Notes: a model not told the origin generated them from the sequence alone. A stretch of 64,000 bases of DNA from an uncultured Rickettsiales bacterium (GCA_964639985.1 CAZXHG010000012.1:1254-65253), one strand, 5' to 3'. Shown: positions 8,167 to 47,286, counted from the first letter of the stretch. Program-made: numbers and translations.

Positions 8167-8244
8167 GCTGTGCGGTTCGCGGCAGGTGAACAGGCGGGGG
8201 GCCGGGATCGGGCGGAGGTCCGCCGGGAGGAGGGGAGCACACGC

Positions 8245-14985: not shown

Positions 14986-15273
14986 TCATCCGCGTATGTG
15001 CAGCTCGACCGGCCTCACGCAGCGCGTGATCAGCAGCGCCGCGATCGCGATTGGATACAGCATCCAGTAGGCGCCCCAGAGCATCGCGAAGGCCCCGAAC
15101 GCGATGGGCAGTCCCCACCACGGGTGGCGCACGGCAAAGCGATCGATGCCGTGCTGGACCAGATGCACCTCGTAGTTGCCGCGGCGGAGAGCGAGCGAGA
15201 CGAGATCGAAGGACGTCTGCACGCCGAACCCGTCGATGATCGAACGATGGTCCTCTTGGTCGGATGCGCTCAT
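14986..15273 (-). CDS. Small membrane protein (~95 aa), translationally coupled to the upstream membrane protein
   Basis: Internal start MSASDQEDHRSIIDGF... of ORF 14986-15966. Its ATG overlaps the TGA of gene 15270-16175 (ATGA). C-terminal hydrophobic helices WWGLPIAFGAFAMLWGAYWMLYPIAIAALLI. Confidence 0.4.
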   Translation of the reverse strand: MSASDQEDHRSIIDGFGVQTSFDLVSLALRRGNYEVHLVQHGIDRFAVRHPWWGLPIAFGAFAMLWGAYWMLYPIAIAALLITRCVRPVELHIRG

Positions 15274-19105: not shown

Positions 19106-19109
19106 GCGA

Positions 19110-23548: not shown

Positions 23549-25200
23549 AGGTCGTCCTCCAGCTTATCCAGCCCCTTGGTCACTCCTCGCCAGGCGTCCG
23601 CGTCGACCTGGTTGGCGGCTTCGGCGGCCGTGGTCACGCACGCCTCGGACCGGTTCTGGGTGTCCACCTGCTGCTCGGTGACCTCACCCTCGGCCTGCAT
23701 CGCCCGGACGACCGCCTGAGCGCGGCTGCCGCAGGTCCGGTTGGAGGCGTGACCGTAGCCGTCCACCGTGTAGGAGCCATCGATGTCGAGGTGGACGTCG
23801 ACTCCCACGCCATCGAAGTTGCACTCGACGATCTTGGCGGACTTGGGATCATGAGGGGTTGCGTAGCGCTGTTCCACGCCGGTCAGGGGGCCGTAGATGT
23901 CGGCGAGGCGCTTGACGACCGTTGGCGCCACCTCGGCCCGATCCCGTGCTTGCCTGCGGACGATGGGCGTGGTGGCGTTGATGACCAGCGCCTGCTCCTC
24001 GAGCTTGTCGAGCTGCCGCTCGTGCCGGTCGGCCTGCACATCCAGCCGGCCGTAGCGGTCGTAGCTCTCGGCGGCCTCGCGCTCGATCCGCGCGGCGATC
24101 CGCCGGGCCTGGCCGGCCTCGGCCTCGAAGTATTCCTGGATGGCCTCATCCTCCAGGGAGCCCGCGACCTCCTGTGATCGCTGCATGAGCCGCTCCCGCA
24201 TGTCCACCAGCTCCGCCTCTCGCCGCATGGCTCGATAGGTCAGGGAGCGGGCCCCCGTCATGGCGCCGTGGGCCGCTGCCAGGGCTGCGGCCGTGTTGTT
24301 GGTCTCCAGCAGCTCGAAGACCTCCAGCTGCTTCAGCTCCGCCTGGTTCCGCTCTCCATCGAGCCGCAGGCGCTGGCAGTGGGCGTCATCGTGCTGCTGC
24401 GTCTCCTCCTGCGCCATGGTGACCAGCACTCGCGCTCGTGAAGCCTCGTCCTGCTCCTTGGCGAGGCGCTCTGCCCGGTCCTTCTCCAGCTCTGCCTCCA
24501 CGCGGTCGATCTCGGCCTGGAGCCGTCGCTCGGTCTCCTCTCTGCGACGTTCGGCCTCCTCGAGCCCCTCGGCCATCTCGTGGCGGACGTCGACGAACTC
24601 CCGGCGCACGGCCTCGACGTGCTGCCGGTGCGCGACATCCAGCGCGTCGATCTCCGCGGCCTGCTGTTGCAGCTCGCCGTGCACGGCGCGGAACTCCTGC
24701 TCGGTCCAGCGGGCCACGCCCTCGATCTCGCTGCCGAGTGCCTGGATGTCGGCTCCCTGGCGCTCGATCTCGTCCGTGACCTCGCCGATGGCCTGGCGGG
24801 TGGATTCCCCGAGGGCGTCGAGATCCCCGGCCAGCTGGATCTGGTTCGCTGCCAGGCCATGCAGCTCACCCTGCTGTCGCGTGAGCTCGCTGCGGGTCTC
24901 CTGGTAGCGCCGGTTCGCCTGCTCCGTGGCCCGTTCCTGGGCTCGCGCCAGGCGGCTCTGCGTATCCGAGATGGCTCGAACGTCGTTCTGGACGCCCTGG
25001 TTGACGCGGATCTGTCTCTGCAGATCCCCGCGCGTCCGGCCGAGCTCCTCCATGCGATTCCGCAGCTGGTTGCCCAGCGAGGTCGCTCTGCGGCGATACT
25101 GCTCGGCCTCGGCAGCGGCCTCCTCCTCCGCCAGCCGCCGCCTTGCCGCATCCCGCTCGGCGATGGAGTGGTAGATACATCCGTTGACCGTGTAGCTCAT
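23545..25200 (-). CDS. Coiled-coil protein (~550 aa) with a C-terminal globular region
   Basis: Probable start MSYTVNGCIYHS at 25200, with AGGAAAGGAA SD; the ORF opens at 25254. Long heptad-like Q/E/R/L-rich stretch. 4-nt overlap with the AAA gene. Confidence 0.5.
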   Translation of the reverse strand: MSYTVNGCIYHSIAERDAARRRLAEEEAAAEAEQYRRRATSLGNQLRNRMEELGRTRGDLQRQIRVNQGVQNDVRAISDTQSRLARAQERATEQANRRYQETRSELTRQQGELHGLAANQIQLAGDLDALGESTRQAIGEVTDEIERQGADIQALGSEIEGVARWTEQEFRAVHGELQQQAAEIDALDVAHRQHVEAVRREFVDVRHEMAEGLEEAERRREETERRLQAEIDRVEAELEKDRAERLAKEQDEASRARVLVTMAQEETQQHDDAHCQRLRLDGERNQAELKQLEVFELLETNNTAAALAAAHGAMTGARSLTYRAMRREAELVDMRERLMQRSQEVAGSLEDEAIQEYFEAEAGQARRIAARIEREAAESYDRYGRLDVQADRHERQLDKLEEQALVINATTPIVRRQARDRAEVAPTVVKRLADIYGPLTGVEQRYATPHDPKSAKIVECNFDGVGVDVHLDIDGSYTVDGYGHASNRTCGSRAQAVVRAMQAEGEVTEQQVDTQNRSEACVTTAAEAANQVDADAWRGVTKGLDKLEDDL

Positions 25201-25273: not shown

Positions 25274-25734
25274 TCAATCCTCGCTCGAGGACGGGGCGGC
25301 CGCGCGGCTGAGGCTGTCGAGGAGGTCCGTCCAGCCGACGAGGACAGTCACTCGCGAGTCGGTTCGCTCGCACTCGTCGTGGAGTTGCTCCCGGCGTCTG
25401 GCGGCATCGTCGACCTCTGCGGTGTACGCGGCGAGCTCTCCCTCGACGTCCTCGGCCAGCGTCGGGCCGATGATGCGGTCCGTCCACTGCCCGACGAGGT
25501 CGACGAGTCTGCGGTCACATCCCGTGGGTAGGGGCACATCGCCCAGCGTCATCTCCCGGCGGATCACCTCGGCGTTGACTCGTGCCGTACCATCGGGGAG
25601 CTGGCCGTCCATACCCTCGGTGGATTCGAAGACCTCACGCTCGAGCCGCAGCAGCGCGTCCTCGACATCCTCCCCGGACTGGAAACGACTCCTCAGCTCC
25701 TCGAATCGCGCCCGCAGCTTGTCAATCGTCATGA
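25274..25734 (-). CDS. Small acidic/coiled-coil hypothetical protein (~153 aa)
   Basis: Internal start MTIDKLRARFEELRSRFQSG of ORF 25274-26311; the N-terminal extension is arginine-rich artefact. Overlaps the stop of the upstream gene by ~13 nt. Confidence 0.4.
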
Positions 25735-26462
25735 CGCACCTCGGCCAGGACGTCCTTGGGGATGCTCCATGTCTCCTCCAGGTGTGCGTCGGCGAGGCGA
25801 GGCTCCACGAAATCGGACAGGAGGCGGCGGGCGTGCACATCCGGCAGGTCGGCCAGGGCCTGCATGACCGCCGGATCGATGCGGTGCCAGTCCTCAAGGC
25901 GGCTCCGGGTCTCCCTCTCCTCACGCTCCAGGCTCTGCTTGCGCTCCTCGAGCGCTTCCTCCTCGGCCAGGACATCCTGGATCTCGGCCGACCGTAGGGC
26001 AGCCGCTTGAACTCGGGAGGCGACTCGCGCACGGTACTCGCCCAGGACCGGGGCGAGCTGCGTGATGCGCGCCTCCACCATGGCGGCAGGTTGTCTGTCG
26101 ATGTCCCTCCATTCCAGGAACCGCCCGGCCTCCTCGACGATCTCGGCATCCAGCGCGGCCTGACAGGACGCCAATCGGTGCTCGATCCCATCCGCGACAG
26201 CCTGCGTCCGCGCGCGTATGGTCTGCTCCGCAGCCTGCTCGGTCTCGGCGATCGCCTCCACGAGTGATGCCCTGTCGATCCTCGTTTGCTGCAGCTCGCG
26301 CTGGAGAGCATCCCTGCGAGATTCCATCTCGTCGGGCCGTTGCAGCTCGCTCAGCCTCGCTCGCAGCTGGCTGACCTCGGCTTCGAGACGCTGTTCCACC
26401 TCCCGCGTCCGGCCTCCGAGCAGTGACGCGACCCGCTCCACCCAGGCTTCGGCCTCGCCCAT
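25722..26462 (-). CDS. Coiled-coil hypothetical protein (~246 aa)
   Basis: Start MGEAEAWVERV. Its ATG overlaps the TGA of the upstream gene (TGATG). E/R/A/L-rich heptads. Confidence 0.4.
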   Translation of the reverse strand: MGEAEAWVERVASLLGGRTREVEQRLEAEVSQLRARLSELQRPDEMESRRDALQRELQQTRIDRASLVEAIAETEQAAEQTIRARTQAVADGIEHRLASCQAALDAEIVEEAGRFLEWRDIDRQPAAMVEARITQLAPVLGEYRARVASRVQAAALRSAEIQDVLAEEEALEERKQSLEREERETRSRLEDWHRIDPAVMQALADLPDVHARRLLSDFVEPRLADAHLEETWSIPKDVLAEVRHDD

Positions 26463-26911
26463 CAGGTCCCCCCTTCCCCCCTCAACCGCCGCTGGATGGC
26501 CCCCAGCTTCGCGGTCAGGTCCGCGACCTCCAGCTTCGCCCTGTCCACGGAAGTCCTGAGCGCGTCGACCTCGGCCTCGATCCGCTTGGCTCGCTCCGAC
26601 GCGGCCAGGGCTCGCTCGATGCCCGCCTCGAGCTCGCGCCGCTCCCCGCGGAGCTGCGAGATCCGGGGCGTCTCCACGTGCGCCTCCGGTGCGCTGTCGC
26701 CTACTCCAGCCAGCGATATCAGCGCGCTGAACTCCCGGCTCTCCGAGGAGCTCATGAGGAACCCCTGCATCCACTTGACCGCCGACTTGTGCAGGTCGAC
26801 GTCGTCCGGGCCGGCTGCCGCGATCGACTCGCGCATCTGCGTCAGGCAGGCATCTGCACCCTCCTGCCGGTAGACCTCGACCCAGGCCGCAGCCATCTCC
26901 CTGTGTGTCAT
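26462..26911 (-). CDS. Coiled-coil hypothetical protein (~149 aa)
   Basis: Start MTHREMAAAWVEVYRQEG, directly after the stop of the upstream gene. C-terminal ELEAGIERALAASERAKRIEAEVDALRTSVDRAKLEVADLTAKL coiled coil. Confidence 0.4.
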   Translation of the reverse strand: MTHREMAAAWVEVYRQEGADACLTQMRESIAAAGPDDVDLHKSAVKWMQGFLMSSSESREFSALISLAGVGDSAPEAHVETPRISQLRGERRELEAGIERALAASERAKRIEAEVDALRTSVDRAKLEVADLTAKLGAIQRRLRGEGGT

Positions 26912-26913: not shown

Positions 26914-28536
26914 TCACCCCTCCAGCCCGACCACCTGGATCGCGCTCGTCTGATCCGGGGAACGGCTGATCCGCTCCACGGCCAGCCGCATCCCCTCGTG
27001 CACTCCGCTGCGATCGGCGGCCGCGCTGATCAGGTACACCGTCGCTGCCAGGGCATCGCGGACCCGGGCCTGCACCCTCTTGTACGTCTCGAAATTCTTG
27101 GCAGCCTTGTCGTCGCAGTGGTCGTGCTGCAGGAACAGGTAGACGACGGGGATGCCGATTTCTCGGGCGAGCCTCAGCTGGTCCTTCCACACCGTCGACG
27201 TGTGTCGAACCGAGGTCATGAAGCCGAGGGAGTTCGCCACGGGCAGGAACGGATCGTCCCTCGTCAACAGCGGGGTGGGTGGTGAATTCCCCACGATCAC
27301 GATGCCGCATTCGTGCGCCCGGGTGTGGGAGAGGGTTTCGACCGCCTGCGCCAGTCCCTCCTCCATCGGATCCCAGATGTCGAGCCCTGGAGACCACGAC
27401 GCCTGGCCCAGCAGGCGGTCGGTGTCGCCGGCCTTGCCCTCGCCCGCCGGGGCCACGGCGAAGTCCGGTAGGACCACTCCTTGGGGCTGCGCCATTCCAC
27501 GCCCGGCCGTGTCTGCGACCCACCACACGTGCACCCTGTCCACGTCCTCGAGCAGGGTCTCGGTGGCCTCGGCCAGCGCCGTCCGGATCTCGAGGTTGAA
27601 GTCCTGCCAGGGCGTGGGACCGTTGGCCGAGTCGTCCCGGGGGCCCTCGGCGTTGGCCGGCGAGGCCTTGTACTCGTCGTGCACCTCGCTCGACGAGCCC
27701 CCGGACAGCATCGTCTCCCATGCTGCCGTCCAGTGCCTGCCATCCACGCAGGTGCGGTCGAACACCAGCGCCACACGATCCAGGGATCGTCTGGGCCGCT
27801 TCCTCGTCGTCGGGTCCTGGATCCTGCGGGGTGTTCGTGCCTCGCCGTTCAGTGCGACGATGGACAGGTGCCAGCGGTCCACGCCCTGTGCGCGTGGACG
27901 GAGATCCACGACGAGGGTTCCCCGACCGTGCGCCGGTATCCGAATCCAGATCGGTTTCGGCAGATGAGCGTGCTCCGACTCTGCCTCGATGCCGATGATC
28001 AGGGGCGCCTCGTCTGACGGTTCCGAGTCGATCCGTACCCGGAGGGGCAGGTCCTGGTTGTCGAACTGGCGCGTCTGCCTGCCGTGCACGCGCACCGTGG
28101 TCGAACGGCTCAAGTCGATGGATGCCAGGGCATCGAATTCCAGGCTCATGCCACGATCGAGGAGCGTTCCGTGCTCGTCGCACGAGAGGATCACGGTACC
28201 TTCGGCGCGCACCAGCTCGCTCGCCAGCTCGATGTGGGCGTCGGCCTCTACACCCGCGCCGGCAACGTCTCGCACCATGACGATGCGCGTGTCGAACCTC
28301 ATGATGTCGGCGGCCATCACGCGGGGATTCGGCTGCTCTCCCTCGAACAGGCGCTCGGCTCGATACCCGCCGACGGCCCAGGGACGACAGAAACCCTGGT
28401 AGACCGCGACGGTCGTCCCCCGGAGATCCACGATGATGAAGAACTCGCCGAGTTCGAATTCCTCGGCCAGCATGCGGAGGATGATCGGCGCATCGATCGG
28501 CGCTCTTCCTTCCGCGCTCTCACAACCTGGAGTCAC
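26914..28536 (-). CDS. Hypothetical protein (~520-540 aa), unknown domains
   Basis: C-terminal part of ORF 26914-30102; the >500-aa R/G-rich N-terminal extension is rejected. Start is ATG 28473 (MLAEEFELGEFF) or GTG 28536, directly after stop 28542 of the upstream gene. Confidence 0.45.
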   Translation of the reverse strand: MTPGCESAEGRAPIDAPIILRMLAEEFELGEFFIIVDLRGTTVAVYQGFCRPWAVGGYRAERLFEGEQPNPRVMAADIMRFDTRIVMVRDVAGAGVEADAHIELASELVRAEGTVILSCDEHGTLLDRGMSLEFDALASIDLSRSTTVRVHGRQTRQFDNQDLPLRVRIDSEPSDEAPLIIGIEAESEHAHLPKPIWIRIPAHGRGTLVVDLRPRAQGVDRWHLSIVALNGEARTPRRIQDPTTRKRPRRSLDRVALVFDRTCVDGRHWTAAWETMLSGGSSSEVHDEYKASPANAEGPRDDSANGPTPWQDFNLEIRTALAEATETLLEDVDRVHVWWVADTAGRGMAQPQGVVLPDFAVAPAGEGKAGDTDRLLGQASWSPGLDIWDPMEEGLAQAVETLSHTRAHECGIVIVGNSPPTPLLTRDDPFLPVANSLGFMTSVRHTSTVWKDQLRLAREIGIPVVYLFLQHDHCDDKAAKNFETYKRVQARVRDALAATVYLISAAADRSGVHEGMRLAVERISRSPDQTSAIQVVGLEG

Positions 28537-28541: not shown

Positions 28542-31130
28542 TCAAGCCTGGTCCTCCCCGGGAGTCGTCTCCTGTTCGTCTGTCTCCGTTTCGCCGCCGG
28601 CCCGCTTCCACGACTCCCAGCCGGGGAGCTCGGCGACCGCCGCGATCCAGTCGGGACGAAGCCGGCACCAGCGTGCTGTCGGTGGCGGTGGTGCTGCCAT
28701 GGCGGTCGACGTGGCGAGTCGCGGTACGAGCTGGTCCAGCAGGTCTGCTTCCGACTCGTGGAGGCCGGGATCGTGGAGGATGGGCCTCAGTACGTCCCGC
28801 ACAGGATCGAGCAGGGGCAGCAGCGCCAGCATCTCGTCCGCGCCCATGGGCGGGATCGGCCCGTGGGGCGCGCAGGCCGTGAGCTCGGCCCTCAGCCACC
28901 GGCCGAGCGAATCGCGCAATCCCCTCGCGCCGAGGATTGCCTCGATGGCCTCGTCGCGTTCCGCCCCCCGTGTACCGGCCCACTGCACGGCCTGAGCACA
29001 CAGGGCGGTGCCAGGCAAGGCATGGACGCAGATCCGGAGAGCCCGCAGGGACAGCCGGTGACGCGAGGCAAGGGCGCGTCCTATCTCGTCGACCAGCGCT
29101 GCATTGCGCTGGCCAGCCAGCTCGCTGACGAGCCAGTTCACGAGATCCGCGCGGATTCCGCCTGACCAGCGCCGCCAGAAGGTCTCCTCCTCGACCTGTC
29201 GAGCCAGCGCAGGCGTCAGCTGCGCGGGCCAGTCCCTGGGAGGCCTCGCCGGTGGGAACGCGCCGGTGTCGAGCAGCGCGATGGCCTCGCCCGGCATGTC
29301 GATCGCCCGTAGCACGTCGCAGGGCGCGCCATGCTCCACCGCGTCGTAGATGTCGGTTGCCCGCAGGGCGCCGACATGGACGAAGAGCCGCAGGTTCTCG
29401 AGATCCCGCTCCTGCGCCGCAGAGGCATCGAGGTTCCGACCTTGCGCCTCCATCACCCGGATCCCGAGCACTGCGCGGACCATCCTGCCCGGCTGCATCC
29501 CGATCGCGCACAGAAGCTTGACCAGCGCGGGCCCATCGGGCGATGGATCGCCCGCAAGCTGGGCCTCCCTCCACCATCGCACGAACGTCGCCGTCGCCTG
29601 CTCGCGGGTCACCTCCGCATCGGCGAACGCGGCGAGGAGCCACGTGGCTGCGATCTCGGACCAGGCCCCGTCGAGCGAGGGGATCTGACGTGGCTCGATG
29701 CCCGGATGGATCGCCAGCGCCTGCAGCCACCACGTCCTTGTCTCTCGCTGTCCACACAGGTGACGACCCGCCTCCAGCAACTCCTCGGCGGTGAAGCCGG
29801 ACACCCACAGCGGTTCGGGAGCGGGGAGGGCTGCCGGCGTGGCAGGTAGCGGGGGGGCGGTGAATGGCACGCCGCGGCAGAGGGTGGCCACCAGCGGGGC
29901 GGACAGCCCGGCGTCCTCCAGCGCCCGCTCGAAGCGGGGTTCGACCCAGGCGAGCCGAGCGCGAGCACGCAGCTTCGCCAGGGCGTGCAGCTCGATCCGG
30001 TCCAGCAGCCCGGCATCGGCCAGGCAACGGAGATCCTCGCCTTCGTCCTCGAACGTCCGGCCGTTGGCGTCGGTCCACTCGCCATGGGATAGCCTGTCCC
30101 ACGTCTCCCGCGCGGCAGGCGGAAGGAGCCGGTCTGCGCCCGGTGCTTCCGGGCCCACCAGGTCGATGAAGCGGTCGAGTGCGCGCGGCTCACCGGCGAG
30201 CACGGCCGCCAGATGGGGGCCGTCCTCGGCCTCGATCCGCCCCTGGACCGCCGGTAGGTCCGCGGCGGTCAGCAGGCCCCGCTTCAGCCAGCTGGAGACC
30301 CTGCTGGCATCCGCCTCCGCCAGCGCGTTCGCCCGACCGTTCCTCGTCGTGATCAGCCAGTCGAGCGCCCCGGGGAGAGCGGCGATCGCGGGCGTCAACT
30401 GCTTTCCTGCGGCGAACCCGAGCAGGTCCATTCGCTGCGCCGCCGTGGTCCGTGTACCCGCCAGCGCCGCGAGGTCGGCCTCGGCCAGTGCCGTGCGGGC
30501 GTCCGGCCTGGCGATGAGTCGCTGCACGGCGCGGGGGGGAGACCACGGGGTCGTCGAGATGACGAGACCGGGTTCGGCTGGAAATCTCGGAGGCAGCCGC
30601 TTGGGCAGGAGCGCGACGAACGTCACCGGACCATCGGCCCCCAGGGCCTGCAGGATCCTCGATGCGGTCCCCGCACGCCGTACCACGACCAGCGGTGCCG
30701 CCGCGGTCAGCAGGCATATCGCCGCGCCGAGGTATTGCTCGAGGTCTGCCTCGTCGGCGGCCGGGAGCACCACGGAGTCCCCGTCGCGCGTGGTCCGGCC
30801 GGGTTCGTCGACCTGGTAGGCGCCATGGACCAGCAGGGGCAGGTCTTCGGGGGCGAGCGGCACGGCCACGCGGGCGAACGCGAGGTGGCACAGCTGGCGG
30901 CCGGCGTTGTCCGTGCCCGCCTCGTCGCAGGCTCGCAGCAACCACCACGCGTCGTCGACGAATGCCACGGTCACCGACTGCGGATTCCCGGCGCTGATGT
31001 GCACCTGCAGCCACTCCCCGGCGATCCGGAGGACCTCCCTGGATGCGTGGGTGCCGGCGATCTGCTGGAAGTCCTCCGCCGGAGACGGCTTGGCCAACAG
31101 CCCGACCGAGTCGAGAATCACTCTGGCCAT
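28542..31130 (-). CDS. Large Ala/Leu-rich helical-repeat hypothetical protein (~863 aa)
   Basis: Start MARVILDSVGLL at 31130, 7 nt after the stop of the Ras-like GTPase gene, with a G-rich SD. Long alpha-helical repeat-like sequence. Confidence 0.5.
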   Translation of the reverse strand: MARVILDSVGLLAKPSPAEDFQQIAGTHASREVLRIAGEWLQVHISAGNPQSVTVAFVDDAWWLLRACDEAGTDNAGRQLCHLAFARVAVPLAPEDLPLLVHGAYQVDEPGRTTRDGDSVVLPAADEADLEQYLGAAICLLTAAAPLVVVRRAGTASRILQALGADGPVTFVALLPKRLPPRFPAEPGLVISTTPWSPPRAVQRLIARPDARTALAEADLAALAGTRTTAAQRMDLLGFAAGKQLTPAIAALPGALDWLITTRNGRANALAEADASRVSSWLKRGLLTAADLPAVQGRIEAEDGPHLAAVLAGEPRALDRFIDLVGPEAPGADRLLPPAARETWDRLSHGEWTDANGRTFEDEGEDLRCLADAGLLDRIELHALAKLRARARLAWVEPRFERALEDAGLSAPLVATLCRGVPFTAPPLPATPAALPAPEPLWVSGFTAEELLEAGRHLCGQRETRTWWLQALAIHPGIEPRQIPSLDGAWSEIAATWLLAAFADAEVTREQATATFVRWWREAQLAGDPSPDGPALVKLLCAIGMQPGRMVRAVLGIRVMEAQGRNLDASAAQERDLENLRLFVHVGALRATDIYDAVEHGAPCDVLRAIDMPGEAIALLDTGAFPPARPPRDWPAQLTPALARQVEEETFWRRWSGGIRADLVNWLVSELAGQRNAALVDEIGRALASRHRLSLRALRICVHALPGTALCAQAVQWAGTRGAERDEAIEAILGARGLRDSLGRWLRAELTACAPHGPIPPMGADEMLALLPLLDPVRDVLRPILHDPGLHESEADLLDQLVPRLATSTAMAAPPPPTARWCRLRPDWIAAVAELPGWESWKRAGGETETDEQETTPGEDQA

Positions 31131-31137: not shown

Positions 31138-31947
31138 TCACCCCTTCTCGTTTCCCGGCCGGCACACACCCAGCTCCCCCAGGAGGTACGCCAGCGGAGC
31201 GGCCACGCCCTGGGGCCGCACCCCGAACGGGAGTGCCTGACCGAACTCGCTGAGGATGATGGCGGGATCGCCGGTGGACCCGCTGTATCCATAGGCGGTC
31301 GACGGCCAGATCCTGTCGTCGAACCACTCCTTGAGTTCATCTTCCCGGCGCAGGCACCACTCCTCCCCGTGCCACCAATCCTGGGTCCGCGACCACGCCG
31401 GGTGGTTCTGGGGCAGGTGACGCTCGCACTTGGTGAAGGTCAGCGCTCGAGGCTTGGTACCCCAGAACTGGTGGCTGTTACGGATCGCGTCGATCTGCCG
31501 GGCGACCTCCCGGGCTCTCCATTCGAGCAGGAACAGGAACGCGTCGGCCTCCTCGAGCTGTTCCTGGACCCAGGGTTGCTGGATCTCCTGGGTGATCTGG
31601 CCGCGGACGTCGCGGATACGGACGATGCCGCCGTCACTCAGCGTGAGATCGAGATCGATGTGCTCCTCGCTCGTGGGTCGGACCCACCGCTCGGTGTTGA
31701 GCCGTTGCCAGTGCTGGGCGACGACGCGGACCGTGGCGCCACCGCACCGCGACCAGTCGATCCCCGGGAGCTTCACCTTCTGGTCGGTGTGGTACAGCGC
31801 GGTCGCGAGCAGGGACGTCTTGCCCACCTGGGTGTCCCCCCAGAGCAGGATCGTCCGTACTTCGCCGTCTGGGTCTCGAGCCGCTGCCGCGGCTTTTCGT
31901 GTCGACTTGGTTCTTGCCCTGGTCACAGCTCTATCCCGGCTCCCCAC
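31138..31947 (-). CDS. Ras/Roc-like small GTPase
   Basis: G1 LLWGDTQVGKTSLL. G3 DVRGQ (canonical DxxGQ of Ras-like GTPases). G4-like FTKCE. 269 aa. Confidence 0.65.
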   Translation of the reverse strand: MGSRDRAVTRARTKSTRKAAAAARDPDGEVRTILLWGDTQVGKTSLLATALYHTDQKVKLPGIDWSRCGGATVRVVAQHWQRLNTERWVRPTSEEHIDLDLTLSDGGIVRIRDVRGQITQEIQQPWVQEQLEEADAFLFLLEWRAREVARQIDAIRNSHQFWGTKPRALTFTKCERHLPQNHPAWSRTQDWWHGEEWCLRREDELKEWFDDRIWPSTAYGYSGSTGDPAIILSEFGQALPFGVRPQGVAAPLAYLLGELGVCRPGNEKG

Positions 31948-32091: not shown

Positions 32092-35000
32092 TCAAACGAC
32101 GCGAAGATGCGCCCTGGCGGCGGCCGCGCCGGGAGGAACCAGACCGTGCTGGTCGAGCAGCTGGTGGAGAGCCTCCCCTTGATGAGTCCCTTCCACTTCC
32201 AGGGCCTGGGGAGGTTGCCCAGGGGCCAGAACCGACGGCTCGATTCCCAGCGCTGCCCAGGCGCTGTTCAACCAGGCGAGGGTCTGCTCGAACCCGCCCC
32301 CGCGCGGTAGAGCCTCCGGGGGCAGGCTCGAGCGGGCTGCCTCCTGGAGGTCCGAGACGCGCTGCTGCAGGATGCCGCGGAGCTGCCGCAGGACATCCGT
32401 GGTCGAATGGAAGCTACCTGTACCCGCCTCCAGCACCTCCAGCGCCCGGTCCGTGGCCTCGCTCGCGGCGGCAAGACCCTCGAGCGAGCCGAGCGGGTCG
32501 GTCAGCAGGTGCCGACTGCTCTGGTCGGCTTCCATGAGGGACATCATCGGCTCATCGTCCGGGCACAGCCACAGGAAGTCCTTGAGCGGCGGCTTCTGGG
32601 GTCCGTCGAGCGCGAGGCGAGAACGCCTGTCGAGGATCGCCTCGATGGCCTGGCTCGACTCCAGGGCGACGGCCAGGTCGTCCCAGTGGCGTTCGACGAG
32701 GAGCGCCTCGAGGAATGCGGAGTAGCTGTCGCGTCGATGGGTCGGGATGGCCTCGAGCACGGTCGACATTCGCTTCCGAGCGTGCTGGGTCAGCTCCATC
32801 CTCACCTTGTCGACCGACTGCTGGAGCTTGCTCACCCCGCGATGTGAAGCGAGGATCACGTTCGTCGTGTCCCGGGCCTGGCTTGCCTCGAGGGCGTCCC
32901 CGAGGTCGAACAGGTCCAGCGTGCCCTTGCGAGCTCGCGTCAGCCGGTTGGCCAGTCGCTTCACACCGAGCACCCGGCTGCCGGCCACCAGTGTTGCGAG
33001 ATCCTCCAGCAGCGGCGTGGCCCGTTCCCTGATCTCCTCGAGCACGGCCTCGGCCCGTGCGAGGATTCGAGCCTCGATCTGATCCACGGGCATGCTGCGA
33101 TCGATCTCGAGGCCATCGCGAATCTCCGCGGGGACCGATTCGAGATGAGCCATCCAGTCCGCCTGCTTCTCCGCATCCTGGATGATCGCCCGATCTGCAC
33201 TGGAGCAGAGCCGCTCACCACCCGCGAGACTCTGCACGCCGCTGTAGTTCTCGGCGATCAGCTCTTCCAGCCTGGGAGCCCACCGTGTCCGCGTGGTTTC
33301 GGTGGCGAACCGCAGGCGGTCGGTCAGGTCCCGGGCCCGGCCCCGCAGGTGATCCCAGGCCGCCGGGCCGAGATGCCGGACCACGAAGCGCCCCGCGGAG
33401 CCCTCCAGCCATCGAGTGCAGTCTCCGATCCCCTCGGTGGCAGCCCCATACCAGGCCTCGGCCGGAAAGGACGTCAGGGCTGTCGCAGCCGATCGACACC
33501 GCTTCATGCCATCCAGCAGCAGCGCCTGCGCCAGGTCACTCTGCGCGTCGAGGCCCATGGTGGCCAGGTGCTCGACAGCAGGGGCAGCGGGGATCCCCTC
33601 CCATGCCTGCTGGAGGCTGCCGAGCAGGGCTTTCGGGTCGATATCCTGCTCGGTGTCGCGTCCCGTGGAGGGCCACGGCGGAATCCGGCTCTCGCCGGCC
33701 AGCGTATCCAGCCAGCACAGGGCCTCGTGGGCCAGGCGGTCGTGCCGCTCCAGCTCCGCCCGGTGGCGAGTGAACGTGAGTCCGTCGACCCGGAGGTGGA
33801 CGTCATCCGCTCCATCGGTGACCGGTGGAGCCCCGTGGGCAACCTCCGTCGCGTGTCTCTCCGCAGCCGTCAGCGCCTCGAATCCCTGCGAGGCCGAGAT
33901 GCGCAGCCGCCTGGAGACCTGCCCCAGGTCCCCCCACCACGAGGGAAACGGAGGCCGACGGCCCGCGAGATCTTCGATTTCCAGCGCCGTGGCATGGGCC
34001 AGTTGCGCGACCTGATCTCGTGCCCCGATGACCTCGTCGCCCGATCCTCCTTCCTCGATGACTCGCCGTCTCCTCGCATCGCAGGCCTCGGCGTCCGCCC
34101 TCGGACGGCAGCCTAGGAGATAGTGCTCGGGCAGGCCGTCCAGCGCCGGGTCGATCAGCAGTCGGTACGCCTCCTGCACGCAGAGAAAGTCGTCGGGCTC
34201 CACCTGGATCCGGCGTGTTACGAGCTCCGGCAAGGAGCCCAGGCTTGCACCGCTCGTGGCCAGCGACAGCCACCGCTCGACCTCCGTGGGAGGGAGGCCC
34301 TCGAGCCACGCCGCGACATCTGCCGAGTCGTCCCCGATGGCGTGGCGCAGCATCGCCGGGGCATCCAGCGGGCCCGCTCCGGCTGGAAGTCCCAGCAGAC
34401 CCACCGGGCCGCACAGATCGGGATTCCAGATGAGCCCCTGAACCACCTGCGGGTGGGCCCACAACGCCGCCAGCAGATCGCCGATCGTGTCGTCGACCTC
34501 GAGGATGTCCGCCACGTCGGACCGCTCGCCCGATTCGAGGACCTCCAGCAGGATCTCCAGCGCGGCCGTGGGTGTCCTGGCGAGCGCCTGGCAGAGGTCG
34601 GGATCTCCCAGCTGATCCGCCAGCTCGAGCTCGATCAGCCGGCGCACGAATCCTGGAATGCGCACACACAGGTCGACCACGGTCTGGCCTGGATCGGCGA
34701 TGAGCTGCTCCAGCTCCCGGAGCAGCGCCTGGATGTCGGGTGGGAGAGGCGGCTCACATGACGAGGGGCGCCAGTCGTCCAGCGAGACGAAGGGGACCTT
34801 GCCGATGGTCGACAGGTACTCGACGAAGGGTCCGGGGAGCTCGACACAGCGCCCCGCCGCTGCGTCGACGCCGACGGTCAACAGCACGCTGGCCGGCGCG
34901 ATGATCGCCACGCGGTCCTTGAAATGCAGCCCGTCCAGGGGGAGGGTGTGGGAGCCAGCGCCCAGCTGATGGCTCCACAGGCTCTCCGCACCGCCGGCCT

Positions 35001-35667
35001 GGAGGCGCCAGCGCACGATGGTCAGGGGCACCCCGAGGTCACCGGCCGAGGCGTCGACCCTCGCCTTGATGTGGGGCGGCCGTCCGCCGATACCAGCATG
35101 GAAGTGCGCGTGGATGGTGCAGGCCGCCGGCCCGAGCCAGCTCGCGGCCGAGGGTCCCACCACGCCGTCGCGGATCGGGGTGGCGACCTCTTCCCTCCAG
35201 CCGCCTCGTTCCCACGCGAGCGGGTCTTCTTCGCAAGGCAGGTCGGTGGGCGGGACGACGCCGTCCAGCGTGAACCACCGTTGCTCGACGGAACCGAGGG
35301 GCCACCGCGTCATGCAGACGCTGCCCGGGATACCTCCAGCGATCACCCCTTCCGGTTCGTCCGTGGTGTCGATCTCCGCCTGCGTCGAGAAATCGAACCG
35401 CCATCGCTCCAGACATCGATGGTTCGAACGCAGCTCCACCTCGAACGGGCCCGAACCGGGGGCCGGTAGCAGTGCCAGGGTTCGACCACTCGGGAGCGAA
35501 AGCGCTTCTTCGAGATCGCCGTCGGGAACCGGCAGCCTGGCACCACTCTTCCCGCCAGCCCACCGTGTGCCCCGAACCCAGATCGACAGGGGAATGTCCA
35601 CCGCCCCGGGCAAGCGCATCACCAGGACGCCGAGGTCACGGTGCCAGTGCCATCGCGCGTAGGTCAT
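32092..35667 (-). CDS. Very large hypothetical protein (1191 aa), first gene of the GTPase-centred array
   Basis: Uninterrupted ORF with strong GC3 bias. Helical Ala/Leu-rich C-terminal two thirds. No recognisable catalytic motif. Confidence 0.55.
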   Translation of the reverse strand: MTYARWHWHRDLGVLVMRLPGAVDIPLSIWVRGTRWAGGKSGARLPVPDGDLEEALSLPSGRTLALLPAPGSGPFEVELRSNHRCLERWRFDFSTQAEIDTTDEPEGVIAGGIPGSVCMTRWPLGSVEQRWFTLDGVVPPTDLPCEEDPLAWERGGWREEVATPIRDGVVGPSAASWLGPAACTIHAHFHAGIGGRPPHIKARVDASAGDLGVPLTIVRWRLQAGGAESLWSHQLGAGSHTLPLDGLHFKDRVAIIAPASVLLTVGVDAAAGRCVELPGPFVEYLSTIGKVPFVSLDDWRPSSCEPPLPPDIQALLRELEQLIADPGQTVVDLCVRIPGFVRRLIELELADQLGDPDLCQALARTPTAALEILLEVLESGERSDVADILEVDDTIGDLLAALWAHPQVVQGLIWNPDLCGPVGLLGLPAGAGPLDAPAMLRHAIGDDSADVAAWLEGLPPTEVERWLSLATSGASLGSLPELVTRRIQVEPDDFLCVQEAYRLLIDPALDGLPEHYLLGCRPRADAEACDARRRRVIEEGGSGDEVIGARDQVAQLAHATALEIEDLAGRRPPFPSWWGDLGQVSRRLRISASQGFEALTAAERHATEVAHGAPPVTDGADDVHLRVDGLTFTRHRAELERHDRLAHEALCWLDTLAGESRIPPWPSTGRDTEQDIDPKALLGSLQQAWEGIPAAPAVEHLATMGLDAQSDLAQALLLDGMKRCRSAATALTSFPAEAWYGAATEGIGDCTRWLEGSAGRFVVRHLGPAAWDHLRGRARDLTDRLRFATETTRTRWAPRLEELIAENYSGVQSLAGGERLCSSADRAIIQDAEKQADWMAHLESVPAEIRDGLEIDRSMPVDQIEARILARAEAVLEEIRERATPLLEDLATLVAGSRVLGVKRLANRLTRARKGTLDLFDLGDALEASQARDTTNVILASHRGVSKLQQSVDKVRMELTQHARKRMSTVLEAIPTHRRDSYSAFLEALLVERHWDDLAVALESSQAIEAILDRRSRLALDGPQKPPLKDFLWLCPDDEPMMSLMEADQSSRHLLTDPLGSLEGLAAASEATDRALEVLEAGTGSFHSTTDVLRQLRGILQQRVSDLQEAARSSLPPEALPRGGGFEQTLAWLNSAWAALGIEPSVLAPGQPPQALEVEGTHQGEALHQLLDQHGLVPPGAAAARAHLRVV

Positions 35668-35804: not shown

Positions 35805-36575
35805 TCAGAGAGATCGGAATCGATGGATCAGGTCGGCTCGGTGCCGAATGAACTCGGGGTCGAAGCGCATGTCGGGGTCACGCGGACCTGACAGGGGATT
35901 CACCGCCTGATGAGCGACGCGAGCTGGCCGGGGTCCGAGCATCACGATGCGGTCCCCGAGGAACAGCGCCTCCTCGATGTCGTGGGTGACGAACAGCATC
36001 ATCTTCGGCTCTTCGTCGAGCAGCGCGCAGAGCTCTTCCTGGATGCGCTGCTTGGTGTGCGTGTCGAGCGCCCCGAAGGGCTCGTCCATCAGCAGGATGC
36101 GTGGCCCACTGGCCAGCGTGCGGGCCAGCGCAACCCGCTGGCGCATGCCGCCGGAGAGCTGGTCGGGATACTTGTCCTCGTGACCGGTCAGCCCCACGAG
36201 GTCGATGTACCGGCGAATCCGATCCTCGACTTCGGGTGAGGGAGCTCCCTGCATGGACAGCCCGAAAGCCACGTTCTGCCGCACGTCGAGCCACGGAAAC
36301 GACGTGTAGGCCTGGAACACCATCCCCCTGTCCGTACCGGGTTCCGTGATGGTCTTGTCATCCAGGCGCACCCGGCCCCGTGTAGGTGTCTGCAGTCCGG
36401 CGACCAGATACAGCAAGCTGCTCTTTCCACACCCCGATGGACCGAGGATGACCAGCGTCTCGGTGCCCGACACCTCGAGGTCGATGTCCTGGAGGACGAA
36501 GTCCTCCGACCTGGCCCCATCCTCGTAGGTGAACCAGACAGATTCGAAACCCAGCCTCGGCGTCTGTTCGCTCAT
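35805..36575 (-). CDS. ABC transporter ATP-binding protein (nitrate/sulfonate/taurine SsuB/TauB family)
   Basis: Walker A GPSGCGKSS. Signature LSGGMRQRVALARTL. Walker B LLMDEPFGALD. H-loop VTHD. Confidence 0.85.
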   Translation of the reverse strand: MSEQTPRLGFESVWFTYEDGARSEDFVLQDIDLEVSGTETLVILGPSGCGKSSLLYLVAGLQTPTRGRVRLDDKTITEPGTDRGMVFQAYTSFPWLDVRQNVAFGLSMQGAPSPEVEDRIRRYIDLVGLTGHEDKYPDQLSGGMRQRVALARTLASGPRILLMDEPFGALDTHTKQRIQEELCALLDEEPKMMLFVTHDIEEALFLGDRIVMLGPRPARVAHQAVNPLSGPRDPDMRFDPEFIRHRADLIHRFRSL

Positions 36576-37339
36576 CGTTGCCGCACCGCCCAGGGAAAGA
36601 ACACGCCCTTGAGTGCGTTGAAGATCTGGTCGTAGAGAACCCCGATCAACCCGATGGTCAGGATCGCGGCGAACACCTCCGCGGTGTTCAGGTACCTCTG
36701 CGACTCGATGATGACGTGGCCAATTCCGCTCGCCGCTGCCACCAGTTCAGCGACCACCAGGTAGGACCAGGCCCAGCCGATACACACACGTAGCGCGTCG
36801 TAGATGCCGGGGAGAGACGCCGGCAGCATGACGTGGGTCAGGCGCTGCAGCGGGGTCAGCCCGAGGGTCGACGACAGGTCCAGGTAGGTCCTGGGCACGG
36901 CCAGTGCCGCGTCTCGGACCATGACGGTCAGCTGAAAGAACACCCCTAGGAAGATCACCGCGATCTTCTGGGGGTTGCCGATACCGATCCACAGGATGCA
37001 CAACGGGACCAGGGCGGGCACGGGCAGGTAGCGGAGAAATCCGACCAGGGGATCGACGAACCGCTGAGCGCGGACGGAGGAGCCCGTCCAGAGACCGAGG
37101 GGCACTGCCAGCAAGGCGGCGAGAATGAAACCCGCCTGCACGCGGTAGATGCTGGCGCCGATGTCGTACAGGAAGTGCTCGTCGACGAAGAGCCGGAGCA
37201 GCGCCTGCACCACGGAGAGGGGGCTGGGCAGGAAGGTGGGCGGGATGGTGCCCGAAAGGGTGAGCGCCGTCCACACGACGAGCACCACACCGAACGCCAC
37301 GACCGCGCTGATCCTGTTGCTGTCGAGTCGCCGCGTCAT
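36572..37339 (-). CDS. ABC transporter permease (SsuC/TauC-like)
   Basis: Six hydrophobic segments. EAA-like region ALAVPRTYLDLSSTLGLTPLQRLTHVMLPASLP. 4-nt overlaps with neighbours. Confidence 0.8.
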   Translation of the reverse strand: MTRRLDSNRISAVVAFGVVLVVWTALTLSGTIPPTFLPSPLSVVQALLRLFVDEHFLYDIGASIYRVQAGFILAALLAVPLGLWTGSSVRAQRFVDPLVGFLRYLPVPALVPLCILWIGIGNPQKIAVIFLGVFFQLTVMVRDAALAVPRTYLDLSSTLGLTPLQRLTHVMLPASLPGIYDALRVCIGWAWSYLVVAELVAAASGIGHVIIESQRYLNTAEVFAAILTIGLIGVLYDQIFNALKGVFFPWAVRQR

Positions 37340-37351
37340 CTCCGTACACCC

Positions 37352-38341
37352 CTAGAGGTAGTCATGGGCCACCACCTCGGGCAGGGGATGGAAGGCGACG
37401 GTGACGCCGTTGTTGAGGTAGATGCGGTTGATCGAGGCCACCAGATCGAGGATCTCACCCGGGGCGTCCAGCGTGCCCATGATCGCCGCGCTGTCGACCG
37501 TGTCGAGGTAGCGCAGTCCACTGATCATGGCGGCGAATTCCTCCGTTTCCAGGCCGTAGTGTGCGGCCATCAGGGCGTTTGCCTGATCGGGGTTTTCGCG
37601 CCAGAAATGGACCGCGTCGTTCCAGCTGGCCACCACCGCCCGTACGTCGTCGCCGCGATCGCGGAGCGTGGATGGTCGGAAGGCGAGGACGTCGACGATC
37701 ACCGTGTCGCGTCCGGCTGAGGAGGCCAGCAGATGGCCTCCCTCGCGCTGCGCTGCGTTGGTCAGCCAGGGCTCCCAGGTCACCGCGGCATCGACCTTGC
37801 CGGCCACGAATGCGGCCCCGGCATCGCCGGAGTCCATGTGGCGGCCGTCGATGTCGTCGATGGTCATGCCCCCACGATCCAGGTGGTATAGCAGGAAGAA
37901 GTGGCTGGGTGTGGCGGGCTGAAAGGCAACCGTCCTGCCTCGCAGCGAGCCCACCGAACGGATTTCTTCCGCAGCGACGATGCCGTCGCCGCCCTTGCTG
38001 CGGTCCAGCAGCAGCACGGCCACCGACTCGATCCCCTGGTCCACCTGCATCAGGATCGTGTCCAGCGAGGTGGTCTGGCCGTCCACCTCGCCGGCGGCGA
38101 GGGCAGCCCGCATCTCCTCCGCGCCCTTCATCGTGAGCAGCTCGACCTCGACGCCGTGTGATCCGTAGTACCCCTGGTCCTGGGCCAGGTACAGGGGCGC
38201 GAACCCAACCCAGATGTCCGTCGCGATGCGGATCGGCCGGGCGCGGCCCGAGCAACCGTAATCCTCGTAGAGAACGGACAGTCCGAAGGTCCCGAGGACC
38301 GCGGTGAGGGCGAGGAACAGGGCCAAGCGACGGTGACGCAT
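37352..38341 (-). CDS. Periplasmic substrate-binding protein (NMT1/SsuA/TauA-like)
   Basis: Start MRHRRLALFLALTAVLGTFG (signal peptide) inside ORF 37352-38545. NMT1-like fold hallmarks IRIATDIWVGFAPLYLA... Confidence 0.7.
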   Translation of the reverse strand: MRHRRLALFLALTAVLGTFGLSVLYEDYGCSGRARPIRIATDIWVGFAPLYLAQDQGYYGSHGVEVELLTMKGAEEMRAALAAGEVDGQTTSLDTILMQVDQGIESVAVLLLDRSKGGDGIVAAEEIRSVGSLRGRTVAFQPATPSHFFLLYHLDRGGMTIDDIDGRHMDSGDAGAAFVAGKVDAAVTWEPWLTNAAQREGGHLLASSAGRDTVIVDVLAFRPSTLRDRGDDVRAVVASWNDAVHFWRENPDQANALMAAHYGLETEEFAAMISGLRYLDTVDSAAIMGTLDAPGEILDLVASINRIYLNNGVTVAFHPLPEVVAHDYL

Positions 38342-38609
38342 CGGGATTTCTCGGACAGGAGGATTCAGATCTCTTCCAGGTCGCCCTAGCGACGAGGGTT
38401 GCGCGCAGCATACATCGGGCTGGTGCGGGTTGCATCCAGCGCTGATCGACCCCCTCGAATCCCGCTCTCCCCCCGAGGAGTCGACGTCTGTTCTCCGGTA
38501 TACTGCCGCGGGCGAGGTGCGTGGGCGAGGGGCAGCCGTGGCCACGGTTGGCCGGATGCCGGAGCCTCAACCCCAGTGCCTCTCGTCAGGCGGGCGGATA
38601 CTACCGACG

Positions 38610-40480
38610 TGAAAGACCGACCGACCATACTCGGATTGAATGCCGTCTACGGCCAGAGTTCTGCGGCCCTGGTGCGGGACGGTCAACTTGTGGCCGCCGT
38701 GGAGGAGGAGCGGTTCAACCGGATCTCCCACGCCAAGGCAGCCGAGGTGGACAACACCCCCGACCTCCCCTATGCCTCCATCGACTACTGCCTGGACGAG
38801 GCGGGGATCGAGTTCGAGGACATCGATCTGATCGGCTACTCCTTCGACGTCGGTGTGCGCCGTGAGCAGCGAAGTCGGTTGATGGAGTACGGCCCGGTGC
38901 TGCCCGGGGGGTACAAGACACCGGAGGGCGAGCGACGATTCGAGTCGTTCGTGATGCTGGTGCCGGAACTGCTGGCCGCACGCTACGGCTTGCACCCCGG
39001 TGACGTCTGGCGCCGCTTTCGGTTTCTCGAGCACCACCTCTGTCACCTGGCAGCCGCGTACTACGCGTCCCCGTACGACAGCGCCGCGGTAATGGCGATC
39101 GACGGTATCGGCGAGGCTGCCACCGTCTCTTTCGCACGGGCCGAGGGAAACGCACTGACGATCCTGCGCCAGATCGACTACCCCCACTCCGTCGGGTTCA
39201 TCTGGGAGCTGATTACGTCGTTCCTTGGCTTCAGGGGGGACCACGACGAGAGCAAGGTGATGGGACTGGCAGCCTACGGGGATCCTGAGCGGTTTGCCCG
39301 CCAGCTGTCCACGTTCCTGCGCATCACCGCGACCGGAGTCGAGGTGAGCGGATTCAAGCGACAGGACCGGCAGGAACTGCTTCGCCGTGACTACCACGCA
39401 CTGGAACGATATCTCGGTATCCAGCGCCGCCTACCCTACGAACCGTTGGCCTTCGAGGGGTCGAAGCGCGATCACGCCGATCTGGCTGCGGCCTTGCAGC
39501 GGCGGACCGAGGAGGTCTTCCTGCACCTCGGTGGCCTGCTGCACCGGGAGACCGGCGAGAGCCGGCTGGCCATGGCTGGCGGCGTCGCCCTCAACTGCGT
39601 GGCCAATGCACGGTTGGCCGAAGAGGGGCCGTTCGACGAGTTGTGGGTCCAGCCAGCGGCTGGCGACGCCGGGACGAGCCTGGGCGCTGCCTTGCTACTG
39701 CATTGCCATCCCGATCCCCGTCTGGGCGCTGGTGCGGGCCGCGTCCGGATGGACAGCGTCTACCTTGGCCCCGAATTCTCCGATGCCGAGATCAGCAACA
39801 CGTTGTGGCGCTATCGTCTGGTCCACCAGCGAGTGGACGATCCGGCCCGGACCGCAGCCGAGTTGCTCGCCGATGGCAAGATCATCGGCTGGTTCCAGGG
39901 GCGGATGGAATTCGGACCGCGGGCGCTGGGCAACCGCTGCCTGCTCGCGCATCCGGGTCGATACGAGATGCGCGAACGGCTCAACCTGCGCGTCAAGCAT
40001 CGCCACCCTTTCCGTCCATTCTGCCCTACCATGCGCGCCGAAGTGGCGTCCGAGTGGCTCCAATCGAGCCGGCCGGCATGCGACGCGGCGCAGTACATGC
40101 TCGCCGCCTACGCGATCAAGGAGGGACGCCGGGCCGAGATCCCGGCCGTGGTACACGCCGATGGCACGGCCCGGCTACAGGTGCTCCAACGAGAGCAGAA
40201 CCCGCTGTACTACGAACTGATCCGGCACTTCGAGCGGCTGACCGGCCTGCCTTTCGTGCTGAACACTTCGTTCAACGACCGCGAGCCCATCGTCTGTTCG
40301 CCGGATCATGCGGCTGAGTGCTTCCTCAAGACCGACTTCAGCGCCATGTTCCTTGGCCACTACCTTGTCGAGGGCCCCAAGCCCTGGGAGCGAGAGGAGG
40401 GAGAGAGCGCCACTTTCAGCGAGGTGCTCGAGGACTTCTACCGCAGTGGCCACAAGAATCGTGGGGGGGGGGAGCTACCG
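38610..40480 (+). CDS. Carbamoyltransferase (NodU/CmcH family); as given it reads through in frame into the next gene
   Basis: Probable GTG start 38610 (VKDRPTILGLNAVYGQSSAALVRDGQLVAAVEEERFNRISH, the NodU/CmcH N-terminal signature); ORF opens at 38399. C-terminal carbamoyltransferase region ...VLNTSFNDREPIVCSPDHAAECFLKTDFSAMFLGHYLVEG. No stop before ATG 40481 because of a G10 tract. Confidence 0.8.
40463..40472 (+). repeat. G10 homopolymer tract at the carbamoyltransferase / HEPN-kinase junction
   Basis: Ten consecutive G read as GGG GGG GGG G-AG. With G9 the frame becomes ...AGC TAC CGA TGA, placing a TGA stop overlapping ATG 40481. Confidence 0.9.
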
Positions 40481-43174: not shown

Positions 43175-43177
43175 CCG

Positions 43178-46224: not shown

Positions 46225-46253
46225 ACTCGACGACTCTAGCCAGTCGTACTATC

Positions 46254-47282: not shown

Positions 47283-47286
47283 CGAT

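Follow-up and report, generated by a model that had tools for sequence, protein, structure and literature searches.

What kind of GTPase lies between two very large proteins in an uncultured Rickettsiales bacterium, and what might it do there? The window, by which we mean the whole analyzed stretch of 64,000 nucleotides (nt) (GCA_964639985.1, CAZXHG010000012.1:1254-65253), holds at 31138..31947 on the minus strand a gene for a small GTPase, hereafter gene A. The original prediction, made from the sequence alone, had taken its product for a eukaryote-like Ras/Roc-type GTPase with a catalytic glutamine in switch II and with its large neighbors as possible regulators or effectors. This was partly supported: the homology of the DVRGQ motif to switch II and the conservation of the neighbors stood, while the Ras/Roc affiliation and the catalytic glutamine did not. 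Judging from profile and motif similarities, gene A is best filed as a rare, divergent, standalone branch of the DO-GTPase superfamily and not as Ras/Roc type. The reading that we favor, with a probability of about 60%, is that A is a TRAFAC GTPase of a DO-GTPase offshoot acting as a partner-regulated switch in an operon of about 13 genes, where it would gate a conflict-type complex.

Fold and motifs of gene A

Gene A is a real gene and not a chance open reading frame (ORF), since homologs are found down to an E value of 6e-68 (the best one, at 49% identity) and the profile search described below recovered 152 cluster representatives. Its G+C content at third codon positions (GC3) is 0.83, as is usual for coding sequence of this window with about 68% G+C. 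The ORF is present as predicted, on the minus strand and with 269 codons from a GTG, and the strings GDTQVGKTSL and DVRGQ occur exactly, at residues 37 to 46 and 113 to 117. Because no ATG, GTG, or TTG occurs between codons 8 and 41, translation must begin at either GTG 31947 or GTG 31926, it being uncertain which, and a basic N-terminal tail is thereby added. The public gene call (P0001, 229 amino acids [aa]) begins at Val41 within the Walker A motif (region 31825..31947), and because this start cuts the P-loop, the call is probably wrong. The gene and its motifs are as follows.

31138..31947, minus strand: gene A, standalone small GTPase (269 aa from GTG 31947; 262 aa from the alternative GTG 31926)
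31816..31839, minus strand: G1, GDTQVGKT (within GDTQVGKTSL)
31672..31674, minus strand: G2, Thr92
31597..31611, minus strand: G3, DVRGQ
31423..31434, minus strand: G4-like TKCE
31285..31299, minus strand: G5, TAYGY
31192..31266, minus strand: conserved C-terminal extension

The AlphaFold2 model of the protein, built from an alignment of seven homologs, has a mean predicted local distance difference test score (pLDDT) of 81.7 and a predicted template modeling score (pTM) of 0.85. Its strands and helices follow the canonical G-domain order (b1-a1-b2-b3-a2-b4-a3-b5-a4-b6-a5), with an extra helix of about 20 residues between a1 and b2. G1 (GxxxxGK[ST]), the switch I threonine, and G3 (DxxG) likewise come in canonical order. 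Strand b3 terminates in DVRGQ, which is therefore the G3/switch II motif. Furthermore, the spacing from G3 to G4 is 59 residues, the same as in H-Ras, and hhalign paired FTKCE of gene A with GNKCD of Ras, so that the proposed homology to switch II withstood the comparison.

A fold search with the model returned GTPases only, the best matches being Rag, Rab, Ran, and Ras, and the protein thus did not cluster with non-GTPase P-loop families. A non-GTPase P-loop class (AAA_16, ClpB-like) was rejected for the same reason, its matches being to the P-loop alone. Structural identity to small G domains is about 14%, a generic level that includes MglA, FeoB, and EngA. The protein is a standalone domain of about 240 aa that contains neither zinc ribbons nor transmembrane (TM) segments and ends about 45 residues past G5.

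Family relationships of gene A

Members of the family to which gene A belongs are rare. Among 5.8 billion proteins, a word-indexed search with gene A gave 7 matches; among 1.84 billion cluster representatives, searched exhaustively with the profile, there were 152, mostly of 230 to 250 aa; and a strict P-loop pattern was matched in 3 of 185,579 species genomes. Motif residues were counted in an alignment of 96 full-length members. G1 (W-G-x4-G-K-[TS]) is conserved at G37 in 91, at G42 in 95, at K43 in 94, and at T/S44 in 95 members. Thr92 of G2 is kept in 93, Asp113 and Gly116 of G3 in 95 and 92, Thr172 and Lys173 of G4 in 92 and 86, and Gly220 of G5 (S/T-[AV]-[YF]-G) in all 96. Position 175 in G4 is glutamate in 79 members and aspartate in 16 (E/D in 95/96). 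The C-terminal extension of about 40 residues is conserved as well (PAxxLxEFGxxxPxxIxPxNVxxPF).

Position 117, directly after the G3 glycine, is glycine in 56 of the 96, glutamate in 12, alanine in 8, and glutamine in 4, among them the window protein and two relatives at 43 to 45% identity. Because glutamine is found in just these four and the nearest homolog (49% identity) has glycine, Gln117 of gene A is a lineage-specific substitution and not a property of the family. The Ras-type arrangement claimed for G3 is therefore right as to the homology of DVRGQ but not as to the catalytic glutamine.

Were gene A a eukaryote-like Ras/Roc-type GTPase, it would hydrolyze GTP by means of the switch II glutamine and have neighbors of the guanine nucleotide exchange factor or GTPase-activating protein type. 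The presence of a DVRGQ homologous to switch II, the structural matches to Rag, Rab, Ran, and Ras, and a weak P-loop match to Roc in 9 of 88 members scanned speak for this, but the structural identity is generic to all small G domains, and the profile libraries point elsewhere. Scans of gene A against Pfam, NCBIfam, and PADLOC yielded no significant model, only P-loop matches. Roc (PF08477) scored 13.1 bits against a cut-off of 27 and covered the P-loop only. When 88 members were scanned individually against Pfam, subthreshold matches were obtained to MMR_HSR1 (31 members), DO-GTPase2 (16), DO-GTPase1 (11), Roc (9), and Arf (2; E 0.04); Ras (PF00071) was not among the 25 families most matched. 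No Ras, Roc, or Arf threshold was reached, and the full-length profile match goes instead to the DO-GTPases. The DxxGQ glutamine of Ras, Rab, and Roc is not a trait of this family, the nearest homolog included, and G4, [NT]KxD in those GTPases, reads TKCE in gene A at the position homologous to NKCD of Ras. The COR domain, which in Roc/Roco proteins lies directly C-terminal to the GTPase domain, was not found in Pfam scans of gene A or of gene B, its downstream neighbor. Searched against PDB sequences, the family profile gave weak matches to EngA, FlhF, EF-Tu, KRas, and RagA. We therefore rejected Ras/Roc membership on the Pfam scans and the nonconservation of Gln117, and regard this reading as very improbable. 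Gene A is no evidence for eukaryote-type Ras or Roc in bacteria, and an attractive lead is thereby corrected.

The DO-GTPases (double-GTPases; Pfam PF19975, DO-GTPase1, and PF19993, DO-GTPase2) were described as part of GTPase-centric conflict systems; they are TRAFAC GTPases that conserve a glutamate in Walker B, are commonly encoded as pairs of paralogs, and in predicted conflict systems go together with GAP1 and with a GASH or FNIII protein (Kaur, Burroughs, Iyer, and Aravind, eLife 2020; PMC7159879). The distant matches of our profile search are proteins of 750 to 930 aa that have Pfam DO-GTPase1/2 matches in their N-terminal domains; of the ten that we compared, three (P0138, P0140, and P0146) lie above the Pfam cut-off. 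Aligned by hhalign with these ten N-terminal domains, the gene A family matched at 99.9% over 219 columns (E 5.1e-32). Both groups share TKx[DE], SA[YF]G, and a C-terminal PxN[VL]xxP[LF]xW; the DO-GTPase-like relatives carry DxxGE (DYQGE in P0138 and P0140) and TKxD. As in DO-GTPase systems, paralogous GTPases (A, J1, and J2) occur in one neighborhood.

The operon and its conservation

The genes around gene A were delimited by frame-specific GC3, frame analysis, and start codons. Genes U to K make up one minus-strand operon of about 13 closely spaced genes. As had been noted, gene A sits between two proteins of more than 850 aa, a 1191-aa ORF upstream and an 862-aa ORF downstream, and both proved to be conserved syntenic partners. 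In the order of transcription, the genes other than A are as follows.

32092..35667, minus strand: gene U, 1191 aa, upstream of A; no known domains, poorly conserved (about 21 to 26% identity)
28542..31130, minus strand: gene B, 862 aa; no known domains; start 7 nt past the A stop, with a ribosome-binding site
26914..28536, minus strand: gene C, 540 aa; conserved C-terminal alpha/beta-like module (alignment)
26462..26911, minus strand: gene D, 149 aa, probably coiled-coil (frame analysis)
25722..26462, minus strand: gene E, 246 aa, probably coiled-coil (frame analysis)
25274..25732, minus strand: gene F, 152 aa, probably coiled-coil (frame analysis)
23545..25200, minus strand: gene G, 551 aa, probably coiled-coil (frame analysis)
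21617..23548, minus strand: gene H, 643 aa, classical-clade AAA+ ATPase (Pfam AAA, 7.9e-18)
20884..21600, minus strand: gene I, 238 aa, NrdG-like radical S-adenosylmethionine (SAM) activase (Pfam Fer4_12, 3.8e-26)
19949..20887, minus strand: gene J1, 312 aa, second paralogous GTPase (GPTKVGKT, DGPGG, FTKAD, SAYGF)
19110..19946, minus strand: gene J2, 278 aa, third paralogous GTPase (GPTRSGKT, DVPGG, degenerate G4 LTMAE, G5 SAFGF)
16172..19105, minus strand: gene K, 977 aa, encoded after J1 and J2; without known domains
15270..16175, minus strand: gene L, 301 aa, at least 6 TM-like segments (hydropathy scan); overlaps the K stop by 4 nt
13989..14945, minus strand: gene M, 318 aa, paralog of L (BLASTP L versus M, 1e-28 to 6e-33)
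12101..14041, minus strand: gene N, CHASE2-domain membrane protein (CHASE2, 1.8e-15)

By sequence comparison, the operon encodes three paralogous GTPases, A, J1, and J2. J1 is hidden in a mechanical ORF (19949..21484) that crosses the radical-SAM gene in another frame, and its ATG overlaps the stop codon of gene I. We take the three to be paralogs because the tandem pair J1 and J2 match each other by BLASTP (3e-17), because the A-family profile matches the whole length of J2 by hhalign (97.5%, E 7.8e-12, 223 columns), and because the J1 ortholog of a distant locus (L020) exceeds the Pfam DO-GTPase2 cut-off (28.5 bits). Given its motifs, J2 is probably a degenerate copy that either does not cycle or has a different specificity.

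The large proteins resisted classification. U and B are Ala/Leu-rich and without family matches; gene U has no Pfam, NCBIfam, or PADLOC match, and for gene B, single-sequence and profile homology searches gave only B itself among the candidates listed. Searches of Pfam, NCBIfam, PADLOC, and PDB sequences returned no relatives of B, C, U, or K, the profile searches of B and C against PDB sequences included. The idea that B and K might be mutually homologous GAP1-like partners was rejected, hhalign giving no signal, and none was found between B and U either. The alignment of the B family shows invariant N-terminal residues that include K14, D20, D74, and R78. The C-terminal module of gene C has the motifs FDRTxxD, WWFAD, SPGLDLWD, and VGNSPP, and gene C is kept even in the most distant loci; a single-sequence AlphaFold model of C was unusable (pLDDT 33). 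The protein may, at a guess, include a vWA-like domain.

D, E, F, and G are charged and Ala/Glu/Arg-rich, with weak matches of coiled-coil type only (crescentin rod, APG6_N, SMC-related). The ATPase module of gene H spans residues 390 to 517 and is preceded by about 370 N-terminal aa with no known domain; its NCBIfam matches are weak (CdvC/CDC48, the best being CdvC at 3e-11, far below cut-off), as are those in PADLOC (IetA/TRIP13). Gene I matches TIGR02491 NrdG at 1.3e-22, below the cut-off. In all five aligned orthologs of gene I, the cysteine motif is an invariant C-x3-C-x3-C (QGCxxxCTxxCLN) as opposed to the canonical C-x3-C-x2-C, and GGEP is intact; no glycyl-radical partner enzyme is recognizable in the operon. 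Genes L, M, and N are a possible membrane end of the operon, and given the 4-nt overlap between L and the stop of K, there may be a coupling of the soluble GTPase system to the membrane.

Parts of this arrangement recur elsewhere. The genes from A through the radical-SAM gene occur in the same order in Rhodospirillum sp. A1_3_36 (L001), in an Enterobacterales metagenome-assembled genome (MAG; L003), in an Oligoflexales MAG, and in metagenome contigs. A homolog of B lies after A in 13 of the 25 fetched loci (tblastn), and in every fetched locus that reaches far enough downstream, A is followed by a B homolog or, in distant loci, by a large ORF. Gene U lies ahead of A and adjoins or overlaps its start in L002, L005, and L008 to L013; it is not found there in the Rhodospirillum locus or the Enterobacterales MAG. 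D to G are syntenic in L002, L003, L005, and L009, and H is syntenic too. Loci whose GTPase is 25 to 30% identical retain A, a large ORF, and C: in L019, L020, and L022 a large ORF lies between A and a C homolog identified by tblastn. The distant loci also have an AAA+ gene, the radical-SAM gene, a J-type GTPase, or a K homolog nearby in a changed order. J1-type orthologs are linked to A in L001, L017, L020, and L022, and K homologs lie near the J-type GTPase in L020 and L017. Identity across loci is uneven: the radical-SAM gene I is best conserved (44 to 57%), and the figures are 25 to 45% for A, 27 to 36% for B, and 21 to 26% for U.

Several features lie beside the system. In L020, a distant relative of the system carried by a metagenome contig of 190 kb, the gene for a caspase-like protease (TPR-CHAT) lies just downstream of A-B-C (17210..19672, plus strand), and a DUF4407 protein lies between the J-type GTPase and the K homolog. 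In the window, a divergent block of four large genes (13..12060, plus strand) encodes an 861-aa protein with a SHOCT-like tail, a 1007-aa protein without domains, an 840-aa protein that contains a Peptidase_C1 domain of the papain family (3.4e-36), and a TPR protein of 1296 aa. This block may be a separate protease-based conflict system beside the GTPase operon. Directly upstream of U, an ABC transporter (35805..38545, minus strand) consists of an NMT1-type substrate-binding protein, a permease, and an ATPase; as it is not conserved beside the system in other loci, it is probably unrelated. Further along, 38399..50326 encodes a 1591-aa protein in which both domains of a carbamoyltransferase, N- and C-terminal, are fused to a Ser/Thr protein kinase domain, then a ParA-like ATPase, two radical-SAM enzymes (one of them B12-binding), and an AdoMet-decarboxylase-like protein. 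The G+C content falls to 0.57 to 0.61 between 40 and 46 kb of the window, which suggests that this region is a horizontally acquired biosynthetic island.

Possible role of the operon

How might the GTPase work? The near invariance of G1, G2, G3, and the Thr-Lys of G4 argues for binding of a Mg-nucleotide and sensing of the gamma-phosphate, that is, for a switch. Gene A would bind GTP through G1 to G5 and act as a conformational switch on the translationally coupled B, and probably also on U. Since most members have glycine where Ras has glutamine and DO-GTPases have glutamate, intrinsic hydrolysis in the family is probably slow, and a partner acting in trans, or dimerization of the GTPase, would likely stimulate it. 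B is the best candidate for a partner that supplies the missing catalytic group, because it is coupled to A, follows A across loci, and carries an invariant Lys, two Asp, and an Arg at its N terminus; U would be the second. By analogy with DO-GTPase-GAP1 systems, the GTPases would control when a large complex assembles or becomes active. This complex would be built from the probable coiled-coil proteins, remodeled by the AAA+ protein H, and chemically armed by the radical-SAM protein I.

The same motifs could instead be seen as a GTPase fold that does not cycle GTP, either a pseudoenzyme or scaffold or an NTPase of other base specificity. Glutamate stands at position 175 in place of the guanine-specifying aspartate in 79 of the 96 members, position 117 is mostly glycine, and the paralog J2 has clearly lost its G4 (LTMAE). 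On the other hand, G1, the G2 threonine, the Asp and Gly of G3, and the Thr-Lys of G4 each persist in 86 or more of the 96, which speaks for selection on nucleotide binding and phosphate sensing; related DO-GTPases have TKxD, and the aspartate found in 16 members makes Glu and Asp look interchangeable. We judge this reading to be improbable.

As to what the switch would serve, the operon probably has a role in conflict or defense, by analogy with the DO-GTPase systems. Its distribution is sparse and scattered, its large subunits U and B evolve fast, and its AAA+ protein weakly matches IetA and TRIP13; proteases also lie beside it, TPR-CHAT in L020 and a papain-like protease with a TPR protein in the window. 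A nonconflict machine for assembly and maturation, or for membrane or cytoskeleton remodeling, would account for other features. There are cases of cofactor maturation in which a GTPase works together with radical-SAM enzymes, as HydF does with HydE and HydG, and here, too, a radical-SAM enzyme and GTPases share an operon, so that the GTPases might be assembly or metallocluster-insertion factors for the radical-SAM protein. Alternatively, they could govern the dynamics of a coiled-coil polymer together with a Vps4/CdvC-like AAA+ protein, given four probable coiled-coil proteins, an AAA+ protein whose best NCBIfam match is CdvC (far below cut-off, as said), membrane proteins translationally coupled at the 3' end, and the lack of a recognizable toxin effector. 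Yet the distribution is extremely sparse and phylogenetically scattered, unlike that of housekeeping genes, the closest GTPase relatives belong to predicted conflict systems, and U and B diverge fast while the radical-SAM enzyme is conserved (21 to 33% versus 44 to 57% identity). Moreover, no ESCRT-III/PspA or metallochaperone family was detected among the operon proteins in Pfam and library scans, and we rejected the idea that the coiled-coil and AAA+ genes are ESCRT-III/Vps4-like, there being no Snf7 or PspA match. A machine of this kind is, in our view, unlikely.

Returning to the partner-regulated switch of a DO-GTPase offshoot, several points weigh against it. Gene A itself stays below the Pfam cut-off, and DO-GTPase2 and DO-GTPase1 were matched below threshold in only 16 and 11 of the 88 members. 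The hallmark Walker B glutamate (DxxGE) is present in 12 of 96 only, with glycine in 56 and glutamine in gene A, and G4 ends in Glu, not Asp, so that guanine specificity is not assured. GAP1, GASH, and FNIII were not detected in the neighbors by Pfam scans, which covered U and B (E ≤0.01), C, D, E, F, J2, and K (E ≤0.05), and eight members each of the B and C families (E ≤1). Pfam holds models for these three domains, and the absence of GAP1 leans on these scans. No copies of the system were found in the viral contigs, phage genomes, or plasmids searched, the PADLOC models gave only generic ATPase similarity to the components, and the operon has no recognizable toxin or nuclease effector. The case for defense thus draws on analogy and on the distribution pattern.

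We further propose, tentatively and at slightly less than even odds, that the locus represents a very rare, so far undescribed system of about 13 genes. It would combine three DO-GTPase switches, an AAA+ protein, a Cx3Cx3C NrdG-like radical-SAM protein as effector, coiled coils, and membrane parts, with the A subfamily having lost its catalytic residue in cis and needing B, U, or both, proteins unrelated to GAP1. Literature searches for this gene combination found only the 2020 DO-GTPase paper, and no description of the subfamily came up there or in the profile libraries; nor was the combination of GTPase, AAA+, and radical SAM found in the Pfam, NCBIfam, and PADLOC libraries as searched. If the favored reading is right, the DO-GTPase superfamily extends beyond the two models in Pfam to standalone proteins of about 240 aa that work with partners different from GAP1, and GTPase switching, AAA+ remodeling, and radical-SAM chemistry would be joined in one conserved unit. 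We know of no published biochemistry or structure of DO-GTPases, and the copy in the Enterobacterales MAG may make testing in E. coli practical.

Set beside known systems, gene A differs from the extended Ras-like GTPases (Rag/Gtr, Rab, Ran, Ras, Arf, Roc, and MglA) by its low identity and lack of Pfam membership, by the helix inserted between alpha-1 and beta-2, by TKCE at G4, by the nonconserved glutamine, and by its conserved C-terminal extension. With DO-GTPases it shares a TRAFAC GTPase domain, full-length profile homology, G1 (GxxxxGKT), D-x-x-G, TKx[DE], SA[YF]G, and the C-terminal PxN[VL]xxP[LF]xW helix, and the operon, like DO-GTPase systems, has paralogous GTPases that are each followed by a large protein, membrane components, and a sporadic distribution. 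Unlike DO-GTPases, A is a standalone protein below the Pfam cut-off, without zinc ribbons or TM segments, its family mostly has glycine for the Walker B glutamate, and its G4 ends in Glu. The operon in turn departs from the 2020 description in having no GAP1, GASH, or FNIII in Pfam scans and in having a classical AAA+ protein, an NrdG-like radical-SAM protein, four probable coiled-coil proteins, and three GTPases. A second point of comparison is the vWA-MoxR FtsH-type ternary conflict systems with a radical-SAM effector (Kaur et al. 2020; PMC7159879). As in those, a classical-clade AAA+ protein, large proteins that are putatively all-alpha here, and a radical-SAM protein are joined in one predicted conflict operon, but no MoxR, recognizable vWA, or FtsH-type double AAA+ was detected here, and it is the GTPases that form the repeated regulatory element of this operon.

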